From Candidatus Kuenenia stuttgartensis (GTDB taxonomy: Bacteria > Planctomycetota > Brocadiia > Brocadiales > Brocadiaceae), in assembly GCF_900232105.1 (NCBI RefSeq), contig NZ_LT934425.1, positions 780,001 through 812,000 on the forward strand: a stretch of DNA of 32,000 nucleotides. Reading direction: 5' to 3'. The position numbers were made by a program, and so were the translations under genes. The notes under the pieces were generated by a model. The model was not told the origin of the DNA. It worked only from the letters and a program-made list of their open reading frames with translations, and ran no database searches. Below, piece after piece: positions 13,639-32,000 of the stretch; the stretch's first letter is position 1, and every line of letters begins with the position of its first letter.

Positions 13639-14139
13639 ATGCGTATGAACAGGACATTAAAATATTTTTTTCCTGCTGTACTTTCCCTTTGCATTATAGT
13701 ATACCATTGCATAAAAAATGATTGCTACGGGAACCATGAAAAGAAAACAGAGCAAATAACGGTATCCGGAACAGACATAGAGGTAGAGTTGGCGATTACC
13801 CCTGAAGAACACATGGCAGGGCTAATGTATCGTAATACCTTAGAAGATAATAAAGGCATGCTCTTTGTCTTTCCGGATGAAAAGAGGCTTTCATTCTGGA
13901 TGAAGAATACCTATGTGCCTCTTTCTGTTGCATTTATAGATGAGAATGGACGGATTACCCAGATAGAAACAATGAAACCCAGGAGCCTCGATCTTCATGA
14001 CTCACGCGAAAAGGTTCGCTACGCCCTGGAAATGAAATCTAATTGGTTTGAAATACATAATGTGCGGGAAGGAGATGTAGTGAAAATGCCACCGCGCATT
14101 ATCGCAAATGGAGAATCTCGTAATGGTAAGAATTGGTAA
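13639..14139 (+). CDS. DUF192 domain-containing protein (secreted/anchored)
   Basis: Track ORF 13513..14139 (GTG start). The DUF192 core is recognisable: GMLFVFPDEKRLSFWMKNTYVPLSVAFIDENGRI. I set the start to ATG 13639 (MRMNRTLKYFFPAVLSLCIIVY...). This gives the usual ~165-aa size with one N-terminal hydrophobic segment. The start is uncertain. Confidence 0.8.
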   Translation: MRMNRTLKYFFPAVLSLCIIVYHCIKNDCYGNHEKKTEQITVSGTDIEVELAITPEEHMAGLMYRNTLEDNKGMLFVFPDEKRLSFWMKNTYVPLSVAFIDENGRITQIETMKPRSLDLHDSREKVRYALEMKSNWFEIHNVREGDVVKMPPRIIANGESRNGKNW

Positions 14140-23059: not shown

Positions 23060-23125
23060 TGAGCATTTTTAATTTAAAATTCAAAATTCCTAATCTAACA
23101 TTTCAAAGAAATACCTTTTAAACTA

Positions 23126-26100
23126 CTATCCTTCACCTAGCAAGCTGCTCAGGAAAATTCTCCCTAGCACTGCTGAAATATTCTTCAGTTCACCGGGGGG
23201 CAGCGCATAAAAACCTTTCCGCATCCCTTCTTTATCACACCGCAATGATACGTCAAAAATATCATTTATTCCGCCATCTCGGATAATCTCAAATCTCTCC
23301 CCTTTTTTATCTTCTCCCTGATACGGCACTATTTTCCCCATGACATAATTCTGCAGACTCTCTTTAAAATCTTTATGTGACGTCGCCATTAAACGATCCG
23401 TTGTCGCTCTGCCAAATTTTCTAAAATACATTACTTTGTCTTCAACACTAAGCGCATGGTCCATTGACGCCGGCAAATCCATCGCAAGATACCTGTTCAC
23501 CCTTCCTGACAACGGGAGCAAAAAATCTCCATTTCCGCTGCCGCCTTTTGCACCGTTACACCCCTGAAAAACAATCGATGTCCCCTGTTTCCACTTCCCC
23601 GTTGTTTGATCAAAGGAATAGCCCATTGCGCCAGCATCCTGTTCAGGCATTTCATGGCGAAGGCCTTCCCTTCCACCGCCGGATTCACCATAAAAGGCAA
23701 CCGGTTCCAAATAGGGAAAGAAATGACTCTTTCCCCTGTAATTCATAGTAAATGCATCCTGCAGAAACATTGACTCTTGTGTTTCGTTTATCTCAGACCT
23801 CTTTGCCTCCCACTCCCAACAACCGCTGTAATCCCCCGGCATACGCTGGCTAACCATCGCAAACACCATGTCGGATTGTTTTTTGCGCAGCGCACAATGA
23901 TTAATGAATTCTCTTTCCCGGCGGGCAATGGCGTCTGACGGCCTTGTTTTTAAATAGAGACCATACCATTTCTGCGATTCCTCAAATTCATGCATCTGCC
24001 TGTTCAGTTTCCCCATCCATATCATAGCGCGGGTATCTCTGGAATTTGATTCCCACATTGCCAAAAATTGTTTCTTTGCCATTTCATACTCTTCGTGCAA
24101 AGCCAGGAACCTTGCATACTGATACTGAATGCCGGTATTTTCAGGATATAATTCCACGGCATCGTTCAGCCAGTTTTTTGCAAACTGATAGTGTTTCCCC
24201 TCCCGCCCTTTGTCAAAATCTCCCGCCTTATCCATGATTAACTGAAAGAGGGAGAGAGAGATCTGATTATTTAAGAGATATTCCGTTACTATATTATTTG
24301 CAAGAAAGTAGTCGCCGTAATGAATATTTGCCATTGCTATCGCTGTTATGACACGCGTGTTTTTTGTCAAATCCTCCGGCAATTCCATGATTATCCTGTA
24401 AAACGCCTCTCTTTCAATGCCACATTTCACCACATTTTCCAAATAACGGGGCATTTCCTGGCGAGGCAGATTCGATAATTGTATTTCATCACATACTTCC
24501 TTCGCCTTCTTTTTATTGTTCATTGCCATGAAACATTCCATCATGCCCAGTTTATATGATGCATCTTCACGCATACAATAGAGTTGTTCATAAACCTCCA
24601 GCGCCTCCTGAAAATTCCCTGCTCTATATTCAGCCATTGCCAACTGCTCCGTTATGTCTGCATTATTATGCCCGGACAGTTCATCCGCAATTTTCCAGGC
24701 ATGAAGCATGCGGAGGGCAGTCACCTTTGATGCATCAAAGAATAATTCATCCTCAAAAAATTGCTGCGGCATCGTATCAAACCAAGAAGAAGATTCTGCC
24801 AGTGATGCTCCAAGCGCCTGAATGGATTGGTAATGTTCTTCCATTTGTCCGCTTGAAGCGAACAACGATATTGAAAAAACCGCCGAACCATAATCGGCAT
24901 TCTCCAGCGCTGCTAGCAATTCAACACCTTTGTATGCATAGAGCAAAACGGAAAGCATTGCGGCTGTATATTTTTCTTTCTGCGTTTCTAAAAGCACCCC
25001 AATCTCTCTTTCCGCTTCCCTATGCAAGCCCACTTTGATTTGCGAAAGTATCCGCAATGCCGACACCCTTGATTTAGGAAAAGATTCATCCGCGCCCCAT
25101 TTTTGCAATAATGAAGCGGATTTTTTGATAAGTGCCTCGTAATCTTCCAGGCCATAATAACATTCCAGTTCAATAAGCTGCGCCTTGTAATCATTGCCGG
25201 TATTTTGTTCAAAAGCTTGTAACATTGACAATGCTGTTTCATAATTTTTTACAATAGAGAAAAGCCCTGCCTTTGCAATATTCAGTGCGCTACTGGTCTC
25301 CGGCGTGTTTTCAAATTGACGCAAAATTTCCATACCGTTCTCCGGCATATCCATGGAAGCGTATTGAAGAGACAACTCCCCGGCGATAAGGCTATTCGCA
25401 CCGTCCATTTCCAATGCCTGCTTCAGAACCTGAACAGCCGCTTCCCGTTTCTTATTGGCAGTTAATGTGTTCACTATGGCGAAAAGAGTCTTCCTCCATC
25501 GTTCCGAAGCAACCTCCATACCTCTCCATAAACATAGCGCTTTCTCTGTCTCCTCCAAAGACAAATACATCTCCACCAGGAAATCCCGCCTGTCATCGGA
25601 CATTTCTATTTTGTCTATTCCTTCTTTTATCGCCTTTGACAGCAGCGACCATTCCTGCGCTGATGAAAGTGCTTTAAAATACCCAAACCAGATATCGCCA
25701 TTTTCCGGCCATCTACTGATCAAATCCTGATAGAGGACAATAGCGCTCCCATAATTCCCCAGCCAAAACTCAAGGTCGGCGCGAAGTTGCAACATCTTCA
25801 ATGTGTCGCTTTCCTTTGGCATATGGGCAAGTATCATCCTCGCCTCCCTAAATTGCCGGGTTTGCACGAGCATATTCAATTTCAAACATAAGACCTCCCT
25901 GTTGGAAGGATCAAAAAATAACATCGTGTCGCACAATTCAAGGGCTTCATCAAATTGTCCTGTTCTAAAAAAAGCGTCTGCAAGTTTTTCTAACGCATAA
26001 TTCTTTTCCTTTAGCTCATTTAATAAGGGAACAGCCTTTGTGGAGTCATTTTGCATCACGAAACAACATGCCTTGCCCAGTTTTGCCTCTAACACCGTTT

Positions 26101-27070
26101 CAGAGTAAGAAAGAACCCTGTGAAAAAGTTCCAAGGCCTGCGCATAATCACCAGACCGATAATAGTCCCATGCCCGCACGATATCCTCATTTTCCCTGCC
26201 ATTTCCGCCTTCGGCAGAAATCCCCATCCCTTCCATTGAATGAGGCGGATCGTCCATTCCGTCAAACGCACCATAATCGTCCTGCCCATAATGAGTTTTC
26301 CGTACAATCGATAACAGGTTCGACAGTCTTTCCTTCGTTACCGCGATATGAGGTGAATTTTCCAGAGCTTCCTGCGGCTCCGCACGATGATTGTTGATAA
26401 TAGTCGCCTGGGGATATCCGTTTTTCCGCAGCATATCAATATCTCCATGCAAATCCGACCGTTTCCCTGCCCCGCCTGCAAGAAGAAGGTAATAGTGACC
26501 ATCTTCCTTTATCCGCATGCGAAGACCGGTGGCATGGGAAATGTGTTTCGCGCGTTTTTCCGCTTCTTCCCGATTGGTGATATAGGCAACCCGGATGGTA
26601 TAGAAAGCGGCGTAATCATCCGCTCTTTCCCGCTTATTCTTTACTACTGGTGGCCTGGCGTTTGTTTGGTCCGGCAATATTTCCATAATAACAGGAATCG
26701 CTCTGTATGGGTCATTCACCACGGACGCCTGTGGATATCCATTCGCCCTGATAATGCTTTCAGACTCCGACAGATCAGAACGTCTCTCCGCTTTCCCCGC
26801 AAGGATGACATAATAATTTTGAGCGGTTCTTTTTATACAAACTGGAAGAAATATGTGTTGCGACAACTTCTTCACGCGCTTCTTTGCTTCTTCCAGATCA
26901 GTGACATAAGCAACTTGAATGGTGTACAAACGGGACGCCGGCGTTTGCGCTGATGTATCGGGGTTATTGAAAGAAGCGTATCCATCCTGCAACCCCAAAG
27001 AATATGCAATGGTTCTCTGTACCGCAAAAAAGATACAGCATAAAACCAGAAAACAGATATTTACTTTCAT
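23126..27070 (-). CDS. Giant bcs-operon protein: signal peptide + 2 SPOR-like modules + TPR-like helical array + unassigned C-terminal domain (BcsC/BcsK-like role, non-canonical)
   Basis: Track ORF 23126..27100. I prefer ATG 27070 (MKVNICFLVLCCIFFAV..., signal-like), 2 nt after the bcsZ stop TGA (27075..27073). The SPOR-like repeats are at 26714..26929 and 26396..26605. They read YTIQVAYVTDLEEAKKRVKKLS...YYVILAGKAERRSDL...ANGYPQASVVN and YTIRVAYITNREEAEKRAKHIS...YYLLLAGGAGKRSDL...KNGYPQATIIN. Helical TPR-like repeats cover residues ~300-1055. The last ~265 aa (23129..23923) are unassigned. Confidence 0.85.
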   Translation of the reverse strand: MKVNICFLVLCCIFFAVQRTIAYSLGLQDGYASFNNPDTSAQTPASRLYTIQVAYVTDLEEAKKRVKKLSQHIFLPVCIKRTAQNYYVILAGKAERRSDLSESESIIRANGYPQASVVNDPYRAIPVIMEILPDQTNARPPVVKNKRERADDYAAFYTIRVAYITNREEAEKRAKHISHATGLRMRIKEDGHYYLLLAGGAGKRSDLHGDIDMLRKNGYPQATIINNHRAEPQEALENSPHIAVTKERLSNLLSIVRKTHYGQDDYGAFDGMDDPPHSMEGMGISAEGGNGRENEDIVRAWDYYRSGDYAQALELFHRVLSYSETVLEAKLGKACCFVMQNDSTKAVPLLNELKEKNYALEKLADAFFRTGQFDEALELCDTMLFFDPSNREVLCLKLNMLVQTRQFREARMILAHMPKESDTLKMLQLRADLEFWLGNYGSAIVLYQDLISRWPENGDIWFGYFKALSSAQEWSLLSKAIKEGIDKIEMSDDRRDFLVEMYLSLEETEKALCLWRGMEVASERWRKTLFAIVNTLTANKKREAAVQVLKQALEMDGANSLIAGELSLQYASMDMPENGMEILRQFENTPETSSALNIAKAGLFSIVKNYETALSMLQAFEQNTGNDYKAQLIELECYYGLEDYEALIKKSASLLQKWGADESFPKSRVSALRILSQIKVGLHREAEREIGVLLETQKEKYTAAMLSVLLYAYKGVELLAALENADYGSAVFSISLFASSGQMEEHYQSIQALGASLAESSSWFDTMPQQFFEDELFFDASKVTALRMLHAWKIADELSGHNNADITEQLAMAEYRAGNFQEALEVYEQLYCMREDASYKLGMMECFMAMNNKKKAKEVCDEIQLSNLPRQEMPRYLENVVKCGIEREAFYRIIMELPEDLTKNTRVITAIAMANIHYGDYFLANNIVTEYLLNNQISLSLFQLIMDKAGDFDKGREGKHYQFAKNWLNDAVELYPENTGIQYQYARFLALHEEYEMAKKQFLAMWESNSRDTRAMIWMGKLNRQMHEFEESQKWYGLYLKTRPSDAIARREREFINHCALRKKQSDMVFAMVSQRMPGDYSGCWEWEAKRSEINETQESMFLQDAFTMNYRGKSHFFPYLEPVAFYGESGGGREGLRHEMPEQDAGAMGYSFDQTTGKWKQGTSIVFQGCNGAKGGSGNGDFLLPLSGRVNRYLAMDLPASMDHALSVEDKVMYFRKFGRATTDRLMATSHKDFKESLQNYVMGKIVPYQGEDKKGERFEIIRDGGINDIFDVSLRCDKEGMRKGFYALPPGELKNISAVLGRIFLSSLLGEG

Positions 27071-27072
27071 TT

Positions 27073-28107
27073 TCACTCTTCCGCCAGGAGGTACAGACAA
27101 TACGAATAATAATCTTTTTTATCATACACCAACCTTTCACTTGCTTCTTTGAACAATTTCTTGCTCAACGTTTTTTCACCCATCTTCTCCGCCGCCCTGG
27201 CAAATACGGCGTAAAAACCTGGCGGGGCATTTTGCAGTGAAATGCTGTCGTTTGCAACATCTACCCAAAGTGGAATAAAGCCCAGCTTATTATAAATATC
27301 CAGCATCTTCGCCAAACCTTCCGGAAACGGGGGATTTTCTTCCCACGAGAGATAGAGGAATACACGGATTGCCTCATAACCGAAATACGGTTTTCTTTCA
27401 TTACAAACAGCTATGTCCCTGCCCTCCAGCATTACCCAGTCTGCAGGCATTTTCAGCGACCCAAAACAAGATTTTGCAACGAGCAGCATGCTGTCTTTGT
27501 AAACCTTTTGCCAGAATGCTTCGGCGTCAACCTTTGCAAACGCACGATACGCTGAAAAAATAACATAGGAAGGGTTTACGATAAAACGATTATTCTCCCT
27601 TATAAATCCGTGATAACCGGGTAAAAGAAACTGGTGTCCGTTCCACTCCACCGCAAGATTCTCCCGCACACTTCTGATAATTTTCAAGGCGTTATTTTTA
27701 TAATTATTGTTGGGCCATTCTTCATCGGCTTTGATCAGTGCGTATGCGATGAGAATATCGCCGTCGGTGGCATTATTATAATCGACTACCCCCCAGACGC
27801 CGCTCGTTCTCTCTCCCCATTTCCACGCAAACAGATGATCGTTCCTTACCGCAATGTTATCCTGCGTCCACTGCCAAAGCTTATCAAACACGGCCTTATC
27901 ATTATACTTTACCGCCAGCAACATTCCGTATCCCTGCCCTTCGGAATGACTGATATGCCCATTGTAATAATCGACCACCCTGCCGTCCTGTCCGACAAAA
28001 TTCGACTTAAATGCTTCCCAAACAACCGGCTGCCGCCCGTATGTCATATTGCATATACCCAGCATAAAAAACACACCTATAATAATGCAACTTAATTTCT
28101 TATGCAC
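27073..28107 (-). CDS. bcsZ: Glycoside hydrolase family 8 endoglucanase (BcsZ)
   Basis: 344 aa with a signal peptide. GH8 catalytic block HSEGQGYGMLLAV and upstream W..FK..FV..DGRVVDY are present. It overlaps the bcsB stop by 8 nt. Confidence 0.88.
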   Translation of the reverse strand: MHKKLSCIIIGVFFMLGICNMTYGRQPVVWEAFKSNFVGQDGRVVDYYNGHISHSEGQGYGMLLAVKYNDKAVFDKLWQWTQDNIAVRNDHLFAWKWGERTSGVWGVVDYNNATDGDILIAYALIKADEEWPNNNYKNNALKIIRSVRENLAVEWNGHQFLLPGYHGFIRENNRFIVNPSYVIFSAYRAFAKVDAEAFWQKVYKDSMLLVAKSCFGSLKMPADWVMLEGRDIAVCNERKPYFGYEAIRVFLYLSWEENPPFPEGLAKMLDIYNKLGFIPLWVDVANDSISLQNAPPGFYAVFARAAEKMGEKTLSKKLFKEASERLVYDKKDYYSYCLYLLAEE

Positions 28108-30244
28108 TTTTCAACCTCCTCTTTCTAAAGCGATATAACAAATAGAAAACGGTTATTCCCAAAAACAGAAAAACAAAAACTAACAGATAAGCATAATACT
28201 TACTCATGGAATATATATACGCCTTTACCCGGGATATTTTACCGCCTTTACCGCTGAAATATTTTTTCCCTATATCAAAAGAATAGACCTTGTAATGAGG
28301 GGCGGAAGCAAGGTCAACCAATGTAAGATCGCCCTTGCACGCGCCTTCTACCGCAGGTTCTGTCAGCATCTTGCTAAAGGCATACAGCTCTTTCGGAGAA
28401 AACGCCGTGACCATCAATATCGTGCGTCCAACCCTGTAGGGGGATTTGAATTGCATTACGGCGCCTTTCGCCTTTCCAAAATCGCTTATTTGCCCACTGA
28501 AAGCAAGGGTTTTTTCATCCCGCCAGCTCTTCACCACCGGGTACGGGACGGAAGTATTTTTTGTAAGTTTCAAAGGGGCAAGTTCCTTTAAATCGTCCGG
28601 AATGCTTTCGGCGCTTCCCAAAATAATAATCTCACCGTCCCATGCGTCTGGTTTGCGAAAACCCATTTTAATTTCCAGGAGAGGAAATCCGTTTTTTTGA
28701 GTGATAGAACCAATGATGTTGAAGGCGGAAGCTATCACGCTGGACGTTGGCTGCGTCATAAAAAGAAACGTTTCGTGTCCGTCAGGCCAGCGGGTAAAAG
28801 GAAACCCGTTCAAAAAAAACAGCTCCAGCCTGGGCAATTCAACAAGATGCGGCATTGGCGGAAAAATAAATGTTGAATTATCGAATATGGTGAAGAAGAG
28901 ATTGTCTATGGGCTTCGGTTCACAATTGCTACTCATTGACGGGGCGAGCATCGGCGCAAAGGAAATAACGTTCGTTCCCGCCCGGAACAAATAGGTAGGG
29001 ATAGTGAGGTTGTATCCTGCCACAATAGCCCCCAATTCGTTATCAAGGCGAATAGCCCGTATATGTATTCCATTCAACAATACATTCAGAACGGAAAAAT
29101 TCCTCATGCCGGCGCCATATGCAAAGTGCAGGGAAAGATTTGCATATTGATTTTGCTTCACCAAAAAATCGGGCGGCAGGCGAAAGATGATTTCTTTCGG
29201 ATTAGGGGATAATCCTTTAAAAGTATACGTTTCAAGGTTAAGGGTTTTAAGGGTATATTTTTTATCGGGAACCAGCATGTGTTTGCCGCTGTACTGTGCA
29301 ACATCAGGGAGTTCAAACTTCACCGGCGTCATTTCGTCGGTGTCAGGAAAGGGAAAAGACATAATGGCGAACGTTTCCGCGGCCAGTTTCACCTGCTCGG
29401 TATGTTCTCCGGTAATTATAATTAAGGCGTGATGAGGGTCGCGTACGAATTTTTCCAGCGGAAGGTGTGTTATTTTCAAAAGGGCGCCGGCACCTTCATT
29501 GATTTCAACGCCCTTTTTTCTTAAAAAATCGTAGATAAAATCCTTTTTCCCCAAAAGGATATTGTCCACGTTGGGCTTGATATCTTTACTCACACTGAAA
29601 AATACCTGCCGGTAATCATATCGCAGCGCAATTCCGGAAGCCACGATGCCCGCATAATTGATCAACTCCTCGGAAGTAAGTCCCTCAGCAATGAAATTCA
29701 CCCTGCCGCGAGGAAAGATTTTCGGGTCAAATATAAATTCAGAAATCGCAGATAACCGCAAAGGAACCGGTTTTAAGCGGTATTCCACGCGTAAAATGGA
29801 TTCGTCAACCTTAATGGTTGTCCAGAGACCGGGAGCGCACGGGTCTTCACATTCATCGGTATAATGCTGCGTAACGGCAAAGCTGATGTTGTTGTAGCCG
29901 GTATCCAGTAAAATAGCAGGAATTGCCACCTTTACCTCCCCCTCAGGAACAATGGGGCTTAGCTTGATTTGCGCAATCGGATATCCATTCACTTTCACTA
30001 CCAGGGTAGACTTGTTTTCCAGCAGAGAAGATGAATTTACATATTGAAAACGCATGACTGCCTTTTCAATTTCCCATCGTTCAGGAACACTGACCGGGAT
30101 TGTGTATTCAGCGCTAATACATTTTAAATCGATGCTTTTAACAAGGGTATTGGTAAATTTATATAAGGGCACTTCTACTACTGCCGCATGCGCCAGATGT
30201 GCCAGGCAGAAGATGGTTGCTATACAGAGAAATAATTGTTTCAT
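28100..30244 (-). CDS. bcsB: Cellulose synthase regulatory (periplasmic) subunit BcsB
   Basis: 714 aa. Signal peptide (…LAHLAHA). Large periplasmic body. Single C-terminal TM anchor YAYLLVFVFLFLGITVFYLLY followed by RFRKRR, which is the BcsB topology. ATGA overlap with bcsA. Confidence 0.85.
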   Translation of the reverse strand: MKQLFLCIATIFCLAHLAHAAVVEVPLYKFTNTLVKSIDLKCISAEYTIPVSVPERWEIEKAVMRFQYVNSSSLLENKSTLVVKVNGYPIAQIKLSPIVPEGEVKVAIPAILLDTGYNNISFAVTQHYTDECEDPCAPGLWTTIKVDESILRVEYRLKPVPLRLSAISEFIFDPKIFPRGRVNFIAEGLTSEELINYAGIVASGIALRYDYRQVFFSVSKDIKPNVDNILLGKKDFIYDFLRKKGVEINEGAGALLKITHLPLEKFVRDPHHALIIITGEHTEQVKLAAETFAIMSFPFPDTDEMTPVKFELPDVAQYSGKHMLVPDKKYTLKTLNLETYTFKGLSPNPKEIIFRLPPDFLVKQNQYANLSLHFAYGAGMRNFSVLNVLLNGIHIRAIRLDNELGAIVAGYNLTIPTYLFRAGTNVISFAPMLAPSMSSNCEPKPIDNLFFTIFDNSTFIFPPMPHLVELPRLELFFLNGFPFTRWPDGHETFLFMTQPTSSVIASAFNIIGSITQKNGFPLLEIKMGFRKPDAWDGEIIILGSAESIPDDLKELAPLKLTKNTSVPYPVVKSWRDEKTLAFSGQISDFGKAKGAVMQFKSPYRVGRTILMVTAFSPKELYAFSKMLTEPAVEGACKGDLTLVDLASAPHYKVYSFDIGKKYFSGKGGKISRVKAYIYSMSKYYAYLLVFVFLFLGITVFYLLYRFRKRRLKSA

Positions 30245-32000
30245 TTTGTATGCAATCCCTCAAGCTTCATCTTTTTCAGCCACAATGACTGCATTTTCCC
30301 ATATATTACAAAAAAACTTTTTTTCAGTACGCTATACAATAATTTCGACGAAAGTGTAACGCAGTCCCTGCTCCCCTTTATACCCATACGCACAATAAAA
30401 TAGAAGATCCCCCACGGACTTACACGCTTAAACCGCTTCTGCAAAAAATCTTCCCATCTTTGACTGTCGCCATACACATATTTAATCAAACGCAATTGCG
30501 CCGCTTTTCCTTTTGCAACAAAATCACATCCGCAGAAAACATACTCTTTCTTTTTTATCTTACGGAATATTCTTGCATCAAATGCATATTTTTCCCCATA
30601 AATATCTCTGACGTTTAATACAACATCCTCTTCCGGTTTTATAGGAAACGGCGTTTTCAACTGCACCCCCATCCCTGAATACGAGATATCCTTTATTTCA
30701 CCCTGCACAATATACTTCATGCGCGGAAAATACACATTGACCTCGCCCCGCGCCCACATGCGATGATGACGGCGTATCTGCCTTCTCTCTACAAACGCAC
30801 CCAGCGACGCCACAGCGATAAAAAGATTAAACATCGTCCATGACAGGGTAATAAGGATAATATCCCGGTATAATGGGAATTGTATCCACTTTACTATCCC
30901 CACAGGAACACACACGGCAATTACCAGTACCATGAGAAGGAATGGAATTGCCTGCCTGGTGAGAACCGTTTCGTCCAGACTCTGTCCTTTCGGGGTAACC
31001 TTAAAGGTGGGATGCCGTGGATTTCTGATAACGGAAAATATCACGGGTATAAGGAATATAGACAGCACGCTTTCATATATTTCCGAAAAAAACGGCCATC
31101 TGAATTTGCCGTGGAGAAAGTCCGTCACAACAATACACCCAATAACGTGGGGCAATGCATATGCCACTATCTCTGCAAAAGATGCATGGTATACCTTCAA
31201 TCCGAATAATAAAAATGCCGCAGGGACAATATAAAAAATAAACCTCGAAAACCCAAAAAACCAGAATAGGGAAGCGCTCATATAACAGAGACGCTGATAC
31301 CATTTCATTCCTTTTGCGAATAAGGGATTCTTCAGTATGAAAATTTGTATCATACCCTGCGCCCAGCGGCTCCTTTGTACAAGCATATCATCAAAGTTCT
31401 CAGGCGACAATCCGCATACCATTGGCCTGTCGATATACACGCTATTATAGCCCTTGCTATGTAAAGCAACGGTTGTTTCCGCGTCTTCAGTTATCGTTTC
31501 GCCGGCAATTCCCCCAACCTCCATTAAATATTTTCTACGCAAAAGGGCGGCGGAACCGCAGAAATACGAAGCATTCCAGGAATCAAGGCCATGATGGATA
31601 CCGTGATAAAACATCTCATTCTCGCCGGGGGCTTCGCCAAATATCGCAAGATTTTTTTCAAACGGGTCAGGATTTATGAAAAAATGAGGTGTTTGCACAA
31701 GAAAAAGCATTTCATCTTTCAGAAACCATCCTGCCGTATTCCGTAAAATATCCCTTGTGGGTACATGGTCGCAATCCAATATGAGTACAAGCTCAGCGCT
31801 TGTGTGCTGCAGGGCATGGTTCAGATTCCCCGCCTTGGCATGCACATTTTGCTGCCGCGTAATATAACTGATACCCAGTTCCTTCGCCATCCTCTTCAGG
31901 GAATAATGCCTTTTCCACGCATCCATTCCCTTTTCGGGATGATTCCTTTTGGCGACAGTGCCGCCGTCATCCAGTATATAAACATTAAACTTGTCCTTTG
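30241..32000 (-). CDS. bcsA: Cellulose synthase catalytic subunit BcsA with C-terminal PilZ domain (5' end beyond window)
   Basis: The track starts at internal Met 31926. The frame stays open to the window edge (…KDKFNVYILDDGGTVAKRNHPEKGMDAW…). GT2 motifs: VYILDDG, HAKAGNLN, DCDH, TEDAET, QRSRW, FKVTPKG. PilZ: RRQIRRHHR ... DISYSGMG (~30502..30786). Multiple TM helices. Confidence 0.93.
   Translation of the reverse strand, partial: KDKFNVYILDDGGTVAKRNHPEKGMDAWKRHYSLKRMAKELGISYITRQQNVHAKAGNLNHALQHTSAELVLILDCDHVPTRDILRNTAGWFLKDEMLFLVQTPHFFINPDPFEKNLAIFGEAPGENEMFYHGIHHGLDSWNASYFCGSAALLRRKYLMEVGGIAGETITEDAETTVALHSKGYNSVYIDRPMVCGLSPENFDDMLVQRSRWAQGMIQIFILKNPLFAKGMKWYQRLCYMSASLFWFFGFSRFIFYIVPAAFLLFGLKVYHASFAEIVAYALPHVIGCIVVTDFLHGKFRWPFFSEIYESVLSIFLIPVIFSVIRNPRHPTFKVTPKGQSLDETVLTRQAIPFLLMVLVIAVCVPVGIVKWIQFPLYRDIILITLSWTMFNLFIAVASLGAFVERRQIRRHHRMWARGEVNVYFPRMKYIVQGEIKDISYSGMGVQLKTPFPIKPEEDVVLNVRDIYGEKYAFDARIFRKIKKKEYVFCGCDFVAKGKAAQLRLIKYVYGDSQRWEDFLQKRFKRVSPWGIFYFIVRMGIKGSRDCVTLSSKLLYSVLKKSFFVIYGKMQSLWLKKMKLEGLHTK

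Follow-up and report, generated by a model that had tools for sequence, protein, structure and literature searches.

The bcs operon and its fourth gene

A stretch of 32,000 nucleotides (nt) from Candidatus Kuenenia stuttgartiensis MBR1 (contig NZ_LT934425.1, positions 780,001 to 812,000; hereafter the window) carries a minus-strand cellulose synthase operon, bcsA-bcsB-bcsZ, followed by a fourth gene that encodes a protein of 1,314 amino acids (aa). We refer to this fourth gene and its product as copy 1, and to its paralogue in the Brocadiales, built of tetratricopeptide repeats (TPR) and a C-terminal domain, as copy 2. Canonical BcsC combines a TPR array with a C-terminal 16-strand β-barrel and is represented by the models BCSC_C (PF05420) and NF008520. 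Sequence comparison establishes copy 1 as a BcsC-like paralogue, in which a SPOR module has been duplicated and the C-terminal domain is truncated and fast-evolving.

The 1,314-aa sequence is exactly that of SOH03252.1 / WP_099324117.1 of strain MBR1, named in databases either ‘tetratricopeptide repeat protein’ or ‘SPOR domain-containing protein’. The initial annotation had described four co-directional minus-strand genes with tight junctions, and all four open reading frames (ORFs) are found in this arrangement: bcsA and bcsB overlap by 4 nt, bcsB and bcsZ by 8 nt, and the TGA of bcsZ is followed by a 2-nt spacer (AA) and the ATG of copy 1 at 27070. Family profile matches for all three upstream genes confirm the identity of the operon. 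The N-terminal ~170 codons of bcsA lie outside the window (the orthologue at locus L001, of the Kuenenia metagenome-assembled genome (MAG) GCA_027493735, has 757 aa). The BcsA translation matches the family 2 glycosyltransferase (GT2) and PilZ families (TIGR03030, PF07238) and contains both RRQIRRHHR and DISYSGMG, as had been noticed. Copy 1 occupies the place of BcsC in a bcs cluster, 3' of bcsA, bcsB and bcsZ, and a convergent DUF374 gene lies downstream of it in K. stuttgartiensis. No gene of the bcsD, bcsE or bcsG type was found within 10 kb on either side of the orthologous locus L001. The source had been suspected of an unusual cell envelope, which fits an anammox planctomycete. The locus gives anammox biology a cellulose-type synthase gated by cyclic dimeric GMP (c-di-GMP), together with a likely exporter.

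SPOR modules and TPR array of copy 1

At the N-terminus of copy 1, a predicted signal peptide precedes the extended periplasmic TPR array, in the order known from BcsC. The Pfam SPOR family (PF05036) scores 39.6 bits on the whole protein, against a cut-off of 21, in two separate stretches, and TPR_19 reaches 2.4e-28; the two SPOR-like modules and the TPR-like middle seen at first reading are therefore real. With 48% identity between them (E 2e-24), the two SPOR modules point to a duplication within the protein. The PDB yielded no match to the SPOR region. From their family membership, the modules would bind denuded glycan strands of peptidoglycan. According to Pfam, TPR families span about residues 297–1042, and this region is collinear with the TPR region of copy 2.

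The C-terminal region of copy 1

Copies 1 and 2 are homologous over almost their full length, with 32% identity over 1,147 collinear aa (616 bits). This paralogy speaks against the earlier reading of the fourth protein as an undescribed envelope-spanning module that stands in for canonical BcsC. Copy 2 comprises a single SPOR-like module, which scores under the Pfam threshold, then a TPR array and finally ~300 aa of C-terminal domain; its end, ...RIHFFFNVRF or ...FYFNVRL, resembles that of an outer-membrane protein. Copy 1 departs from this plan in its last third. Residues ~1046–1150 are not recognizable as TPR, whereas the equivalent segment of copy 2 matches consensus TPR structures. Beyond this segment, the tail of copy 1 used alone as a BLASTP query finds the copy-2 domain at E 1e-8, collinear with positions 4–144 of its 307 aa, and a profile of the copy-2 C-terminus matches window residues 1155–1289 at profile positions 7–143 of 307. 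In the multiple alignment, the tail runs along the front of the copy-2 domain and ends ~165 residues early. The ~265-aa tail can thus no longer be called unknown: over the last ~140 residues that align, it is homologous to the front of the copy-2 domain. Judged from these alignments, copy 1 ends in what is left of a copy-2-type domain, cut short and evolving fast. The missing ~165 positions left no trace in the window DNA downstream of copy 1, which led us to reject the idea that a remnant of the barrel survives in the intergenic DNA there.

Profile searches and amphipathicity agree with the initial annotation that the C-terminus does not look like a complete barrel. No Pfam or NCBIfam family matches the last ~265 aa, and BCSC_C (PF05420, ~336 positions) finds neither the whole of copy 1 nor its last 174 aa at E ≤ 10. 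Period-2 amphipathicity is lacking in the tail (z 0.6, versus 2.3–2.8 for the copy-2 domain and 3.5 for a true BCSC_C domain). The protein ends in ...RIFLSSLLGEG, with no C-terminal aromatic residue or β-signal, and it lacks the complete ~300-aa C-terminal domain with terminal F or L that characterizes the copy-2 family.

The tail varies among relatives. Its last 24 residues, specific to copy 1, are conserved in P0002, P0003 and P0004. An end motif, LGRIFLxSxLxEG, is kept in the window protein and in the orthologues P0002 and P0003 and carries substitutions in P0004, the orthologue from the K_DeepCast MAG, in which ~60 aa are deleted within the tail. In L001 and in kuste3392, the last 43 nt of copy 1 including the stop codon (23125–23167) correspond to a different segment of 335 nt, which results in a different final ~20 aa. 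Synteny just past the stop codon differs in a 90%-identical strain (L012).

Table 1. Genes of the operon and segments of copy 1, in window coordinates
Feature	Position	Strand	Basis
bcsA, catalytic cellulose synthase with C-terminal PilZ domain	30241..32000	-	TIGR03030 690.8 bits, PF13632, PF03552, PF07238
bcsB, periplasmic co-polymerase with C-terminal membrane anchor	28100..30244	-	PF03170 1.3e-106; NF008329 9.5e-80, under the equivalog cut-off
bcsZ, endoglucanase of glycoside hydrolase family 8 (GH8), GTG start	27073..28107	-	PF01270 2e-60; NF008305 1.4e-62
copy 1, 1,314-aa BcsC-like paralogue	23126..27070	-	SOH03252.1, orthologue of kuste3392
Predicted N-terminal signal peptide (MKVNICFLVLCCIFFAVQRTIA), without lipobox	27005..27070	-	pattern of the translation, no predictor
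SPOR module 1, residues ~46-125	26696..26935	-	Pfam SPOR; counterpart, by alignment, of the one SPOR-like module in copy 2
SPOR module 2, residues ~153-228	26387..26614	-	best Pfam SPOR stretch, 155-225
TPR superhelix region, residues ~293-1045	23936..26194	-	TPR_19 2.4e-28, TPR_14, TPR_16, others
Degenerate segment, residues ~1046-1150	23621..23935	-	alignment with the last TPR pair of copy 2; dN/dS 0.3-0.5
Putative remnant, front ~45% of BcsC-like C-terminal domain, residues ~1151-1290	23201..23620	-	BLASTP, profile
24-residue tail specific to copy 1 (...LGRIFLSSLLGEG) and stop codon	23126..23200	-	alignment

Copy 2 and the distribution of both paralogues

Close homologues of copy 1 were found only in Kuenenia and in one related lake MAG. 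In K. hertensis (L003/L015) and in the K_DeepCast Planctomycetota MAG (L004/L014), a copy 2 of ~1,360 aa stands directly after the copy-1 orthologue. The initial annotation had asked whether the architecture of copy 1 always follows bcsZ; it does not, as the Brocadiaceae MAG GCA_031316145 (L008) has bcsA-bcsB-bcsZ followed by a single gene of the copy-2 type. The gap between bcsZ and copy 1, 2 nt in the window, is ~770–860 nt in K. hertensis (L003:9232-10001) and K_DeepCast (L004:9142-10001).

In K. stuttgartiensis, copy 2 (KsCSTR_34110, SOH03027.1) is unlinked to the operon. It is intact in strain CSTR1 (KsCSTR_34110, 1,377 aa; L007). In MBR1 (SOH03027.1, L011:10001-15417), homology to the L007 gene ends at nt 13821, about codon 1274, and the last ~103 codons were not found within 7.7 kb downstream. 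Neither paralogue was found with a complete C-terminal domain in MBR1, and in this strain the route over the outer membrane may be defective. The truncated gene is adjoined by an opposite-strand ORF of 518 aa that has no Pfam or NCBIfam family match.

Brocadia and Scalinduaceae genomes hold genes of the copy-2 type only, the one of Brocadia pituitae encoding a protein without a SPOR module. Ten of their loci reach past the 3' end of this gene, and in 10 of 10 a GH8 gene comes next; half of them (5 of 10) have a distant GT2 upstream with about 30–39% identity to BcsA, and no BcsB match was obtained in these ten. In other Brocadiales MAGs (L010:7340-17976, L017, L021, L022), one or sometimes two distant BcsA-like GT2 genes flank the copy-2-type exporter gene on one side and a GH8 gene on the other. 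These loci gave no BcsB match, and that of L010 continues with a Porin_O_P gene and a PilZ protein. Such BcsB-less loci may constitute a second glucan system in anammox bacteria.

In two related operons, bcsB is or appears interrupted. In GCA_027493735 (L001:4710-8919), a DDE_Tnp_1 transposase gene of 627 aa splits bcsB into parts of 409 and 326 aa, and this insertion sequence (IS) inactivates the operon. In K_DeepCast (L004/L014:5981-8115), bcsB gives two overlapping matches, residues 1–600 and 577–714, and is called as genes of 567 and 105 aa, the result of either a frameshift or a sequencing error. A large secreted protein of glycoside hydrolase family 44 (GH44) with CarboxypepD_reg domains is encoded upstream of bcsA in K. 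hertensis (L003:1-2160) and K_DeepCast (L004:1-2213), and is not found there in the K. stuttgartiensis-like L001.

Relation of the copy-2 C-terminal domain to BCSC_C

With the copy-2 domain as profile, a search of 1.84 billion proteins retrieved 198 representatives at E < 1e-3. Of the 150 matches listed, nearly all run to the C-terminus of the protein, and each of the 46 full-length relatives scanned is a TPR protein. TPR families swamp the Pfam scan of these 46, which told nothing of the C-terminal domain. The C-termini of relatives give collinear sub-threshold matches to BCSC_C, PgaA_barrel (26.8 bits, cut-off 27) and PelB_C. Comparison by hhalign of the iterated copy-2 profile with an eight-sequence BCSC_C alignment yielded a probability of 90% (E 1.7e-6) over the last 132 columns, and 0.7% in the reversed control. 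This profile-profile comparison is the only significant one: hhalign against P0005 as a single sequence stays at 4% probability, and hmmsearch of the iterated C-terminal profile against P0005 finds no match. Profile and fold searches of the PDB with the copy-2 C-terminus returned matches to the TPR region and no BcsC structure. An AlphaFold2 (AF2) model from five sequences contains 12 long strands at a predicted local distance difference test (pLDDT) of 20–47. Taken together, the comparisons suggest that the copy-2 C-terminal family is remotely related to BCSC_C, and the window protein lacks precisely that half of the copy-2 domain which resembles BCSC_C.

Selection on the operon and on copy 2

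Ratios of nonsynonymous to synonymous substitution rates (dN/dS), computed by the Nei-Gojobori method, are 0.06–0.10 for bcsA, bcsB and bcsZ. Copy 1 as a whole stands at ~0.25, with 0.15–0.23 in its TPR region and 0.28–0.50 in its tail. Copy 2 shows about half the value of copy 1, 0.12–0.14 over its whole length and 0.10–0.12 in its C-terminal domain. These values indicate that copy 1 is constrained, yet more loosely than its neighbours, and that its tail is the loosest part. At least four lineages, at dS of ~0.7–0.9 from one another, keep the ORF of copy 1 uninterrupted at 1,171–1,330 codons.

Copy 1 as a probable wall-tethered scaffold

We favour, at a probability of roughly 0.6, the reading of copy 1 as a duplicated, SPOR-enriched BcsC-like paralogue that acts as a peptidoglycan-tethered periplasmic scaffold and lacks the pore-forming rear half of its C-terminal domain. 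The ancestor would have been a single gene after bcsA, bcsB and bcsZ, coding for a SPOR-like module, an extended array of TPR and ~300 aa of C-terminal domain. In the simplest history, this exporter gene underwent tandem duplication in the Kuenenia lineage. The upstream copy, the present copy 1, would then have duplicated its SPOR module, its last TPR pair would have decayed, and its C-terminal domain would have shrunk to the front ~45%, without the BCSC_C-like half and the terminal ...FNVRF. Exported by means of its signal peptide, the protein would be tethered to peptidoglycan through the two SPOR modules, and its TPR superhelix of ~750 aa would scaffold or guide the glucan made by BcsAB, and perhaps BcsZ, in the periplasm. 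Copy 1 would be unable to form a pore in the outer membrane, a task that would fall to copy 2. Because the tail is a truncated remnant, the gene is better described as a duplicated and degraded BcsC-like gene than as a new export device.

Several points weigh against this reading. We infer the scaffold function, the binding of the SPOR modules to peptidoglycan and the partnership with copy 2, all three. The remote homology that would make the copy-2 domain a barrel is confined to its C-terminal half, the AF2 model of that domain is of low confidence, and charged residues amount to 25% of it, versus 15% in a BCSC_C domain, which is high for a barrel. For the tail of copy 1, AF2 with an eight-sequence alignment gave an uninformative prediction (pLDDT 35), and no structure was obtained. 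A dN/dS below 1 and a conserved end motif indicate that the tail may have a function that the scaffold model leaves unexplained. The dN/dS values themselves are approximate because dS is near saturation (0.7–1.2). Finally, the system shows decay, in the form of an IS in bcsB, an apparent frameshift in bcsB and a truncated copy 2 in MBR1, and the pathway may be dispensable in reactor strains. Such broken parts in reactor-derived genomes may bear on aggregation versus planktonic growth.

The same signs of decay give some weight to the strongest alternative, in which copy 1 became redundant after duplication and is drifting towards a pseudogene with no role in glucan export. Copy 1 has the highest dN/dS of the operon (0.25; 0.3–0.5 in the tail), its last TPR pair is degenerate, ~60 aa of the tail are deleted in the K_DeepCast orthologue, its last 43 nt are swapped for other sequence in other K. 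stuttgartiensis strains, and bcsB is hit by an IS insertion or apparent frameshift in related genomes. A decaying relic would, however, hardly keep its reading frame open across four or more lineages, at dN/dS far under 1 for each of its domains; moreover, a SPOR module was gained by duplication and none was lost, the 2-nt junction with bcsZ is kept in the window, and so is the end motif, in the window protein, P0002 and P0003 (with substitutions in P0004). We regard this alternative as unlikely, though deserving of attention.

Far less probable is a view in line with the initial annotation, in which the ~265-aa tail would be a non-canonical anchor in the outer membrane or S-layer, for example an oligomeric composite pore, that replaces BcsC. 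Some purifying selection on the tail, its conserved C-terminal motif and the failure to find an intact barrel-bearing paralogue in MBR1 would suit such a module, and an oligomeric pore has been considered for the TPR protein BcsK (PMC8892547). The tail, however, represents only part of a related C-terminal domain, lacks both the period-2 amphipathicity of the full domains (z 0.6 versus 2.3–3.5) and a terminal aromatic signal, tolerates a deletion of ~60 aa in a relative and yields no informative AF2 model; in both relatives with tandem copies, a full-length paralogue adjoins copy 1. Equally long odds attach to a ‘split BcsC’, in which the front part retained by copy 1 would dock onto or complete the copy-2 domain, or would homo-oligomerize, to give a composite SPOR-tethered pore in the outer membrane. 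If this were true, scaffold and porin functions would be divided between two paralogues in the anammox envelope.

Comparison with known export systems

PgaA, PelB and the AlgK-AlgE pair follow a common logic, in which a TPR scaffold is coupled to a porin of 16–18 strands, and AlgK-AlgE is a case in which two distinct proteins provide the scaffold and the porin. Searched against Pfam and NCBIfam, copy 1 shows no significant match to these systems beyond its TPR region.

The closest relatives are the copy-2 proteins of the Brocadiales (KsCSTR_34110, P0006, P0009, and homologues in Brocadia and Scalinduaceae), to which copy 1 is homologous over almost its full length. What sets them apart is a single SPOR-like module, a final TPR pair that is still intact and a C-terminal domain present in full up to its FNVRF end.

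Like BcsC, copy 1 is the last gene after bcsZ, and its product combines a signal peptide with an extended run of TPR in the periplasm. Unlike BcsC, it gives no BCSC_C match, has no terminal aromatic motif, retains the front ~45% of a related domain only and carries two N-terminal SPOR modules. An ordinary BcsC was therefore rejected, the barrel features looked for being absent. SPOR modules in BcsC are not described in the accessible literature, which likewise offered nothing specific on kuste3389-3392, on an anammox cellulose synthase or on SPOR combined with BcsC; neither this combination nor a porin-less scaffold derived from an exporter gene appears there. Nevertheless, SPOR-tagged BcsC proteins exist: a metagenomic locus (L002:5361-8396, Logan SRR22388350) has bcsA-bcsB-bcsZ followed by a protein of 1,011 aa in which TPR and a true BCSC_C domain (8.6e-48) come after an N-terminal SPOR-like module that falls just short of the cut-off (19.2 bits). 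Proteins of this build form a small family (P0197-P0201). BcsC-like exporters can thus carry SPOR modules, two in the window protein, one in copy 2 and one in the metagenomic BCSC_C protein, and these modules represent a concrete, testable tether to peptidoglycan.

BcsK belongs to the type III bcs operons of alpha-proteobacteria and cyanobacteria and was reportedly defined by Romling and Galperin in 2015. Copy 1 resembles it in being TPR-rich and porin-less and in following bcsA, bcsB and bcsZ at a locus where bcsD, bcsE and bcsG were not found in the 10 kb seen. By its published description, BcsK is periplasmic, rich in TPR and devoid of a porin domain, its cluster lacks bcsD, bcsE and bcsG, and a role in peptidoglycan contact and scaffolding has been proposed for it (PMC8892547, PMC11470070); an oligomeric pore has been raised as a possibility (PMC8892547). 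Neither Pfam nor NCBIfam, as searched, holds a curated BcsK model, and the comparison was made with both TPR proteins of the type III cluster of Azospirillum lipoferum 4B, either of which could be the published BcsK. BLASTP of copy 1 against the two gave E values of 0.39 and 0.14, and they measure 558–592 aa with no SPOR match, so that copy 1 is twice as long and differs in its SPOR modules. Membership of copy 1 in the BcsK family, although suggested by the verbal description, was rejected and is the least probable of the readings, since neither A. lipoferum 4B protein shows similarity and the nearest relatives of copy 1 carry a full C-terminal domain.

Copy 1 would come close in function to what has been proposed for BcsK, with no homology to it as judged from the two A. 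lipoferum 4B proteins. The passage of the glucan through peptidoglycan and porin-less export of the BcsK type are listed as unsolved in reviews of cellulose secretion (PMC8892547), and the present locus is relevant to the two questions. Unlike BcsK, copy 1 appears to derive from a BcsC-like exporter gene that lost the rear half of its C-terminal domain. Duplication followed by such a loss would turn a BcsC-like gene into a porin-less scaffold, a plausible route to BcsK-like proteins.

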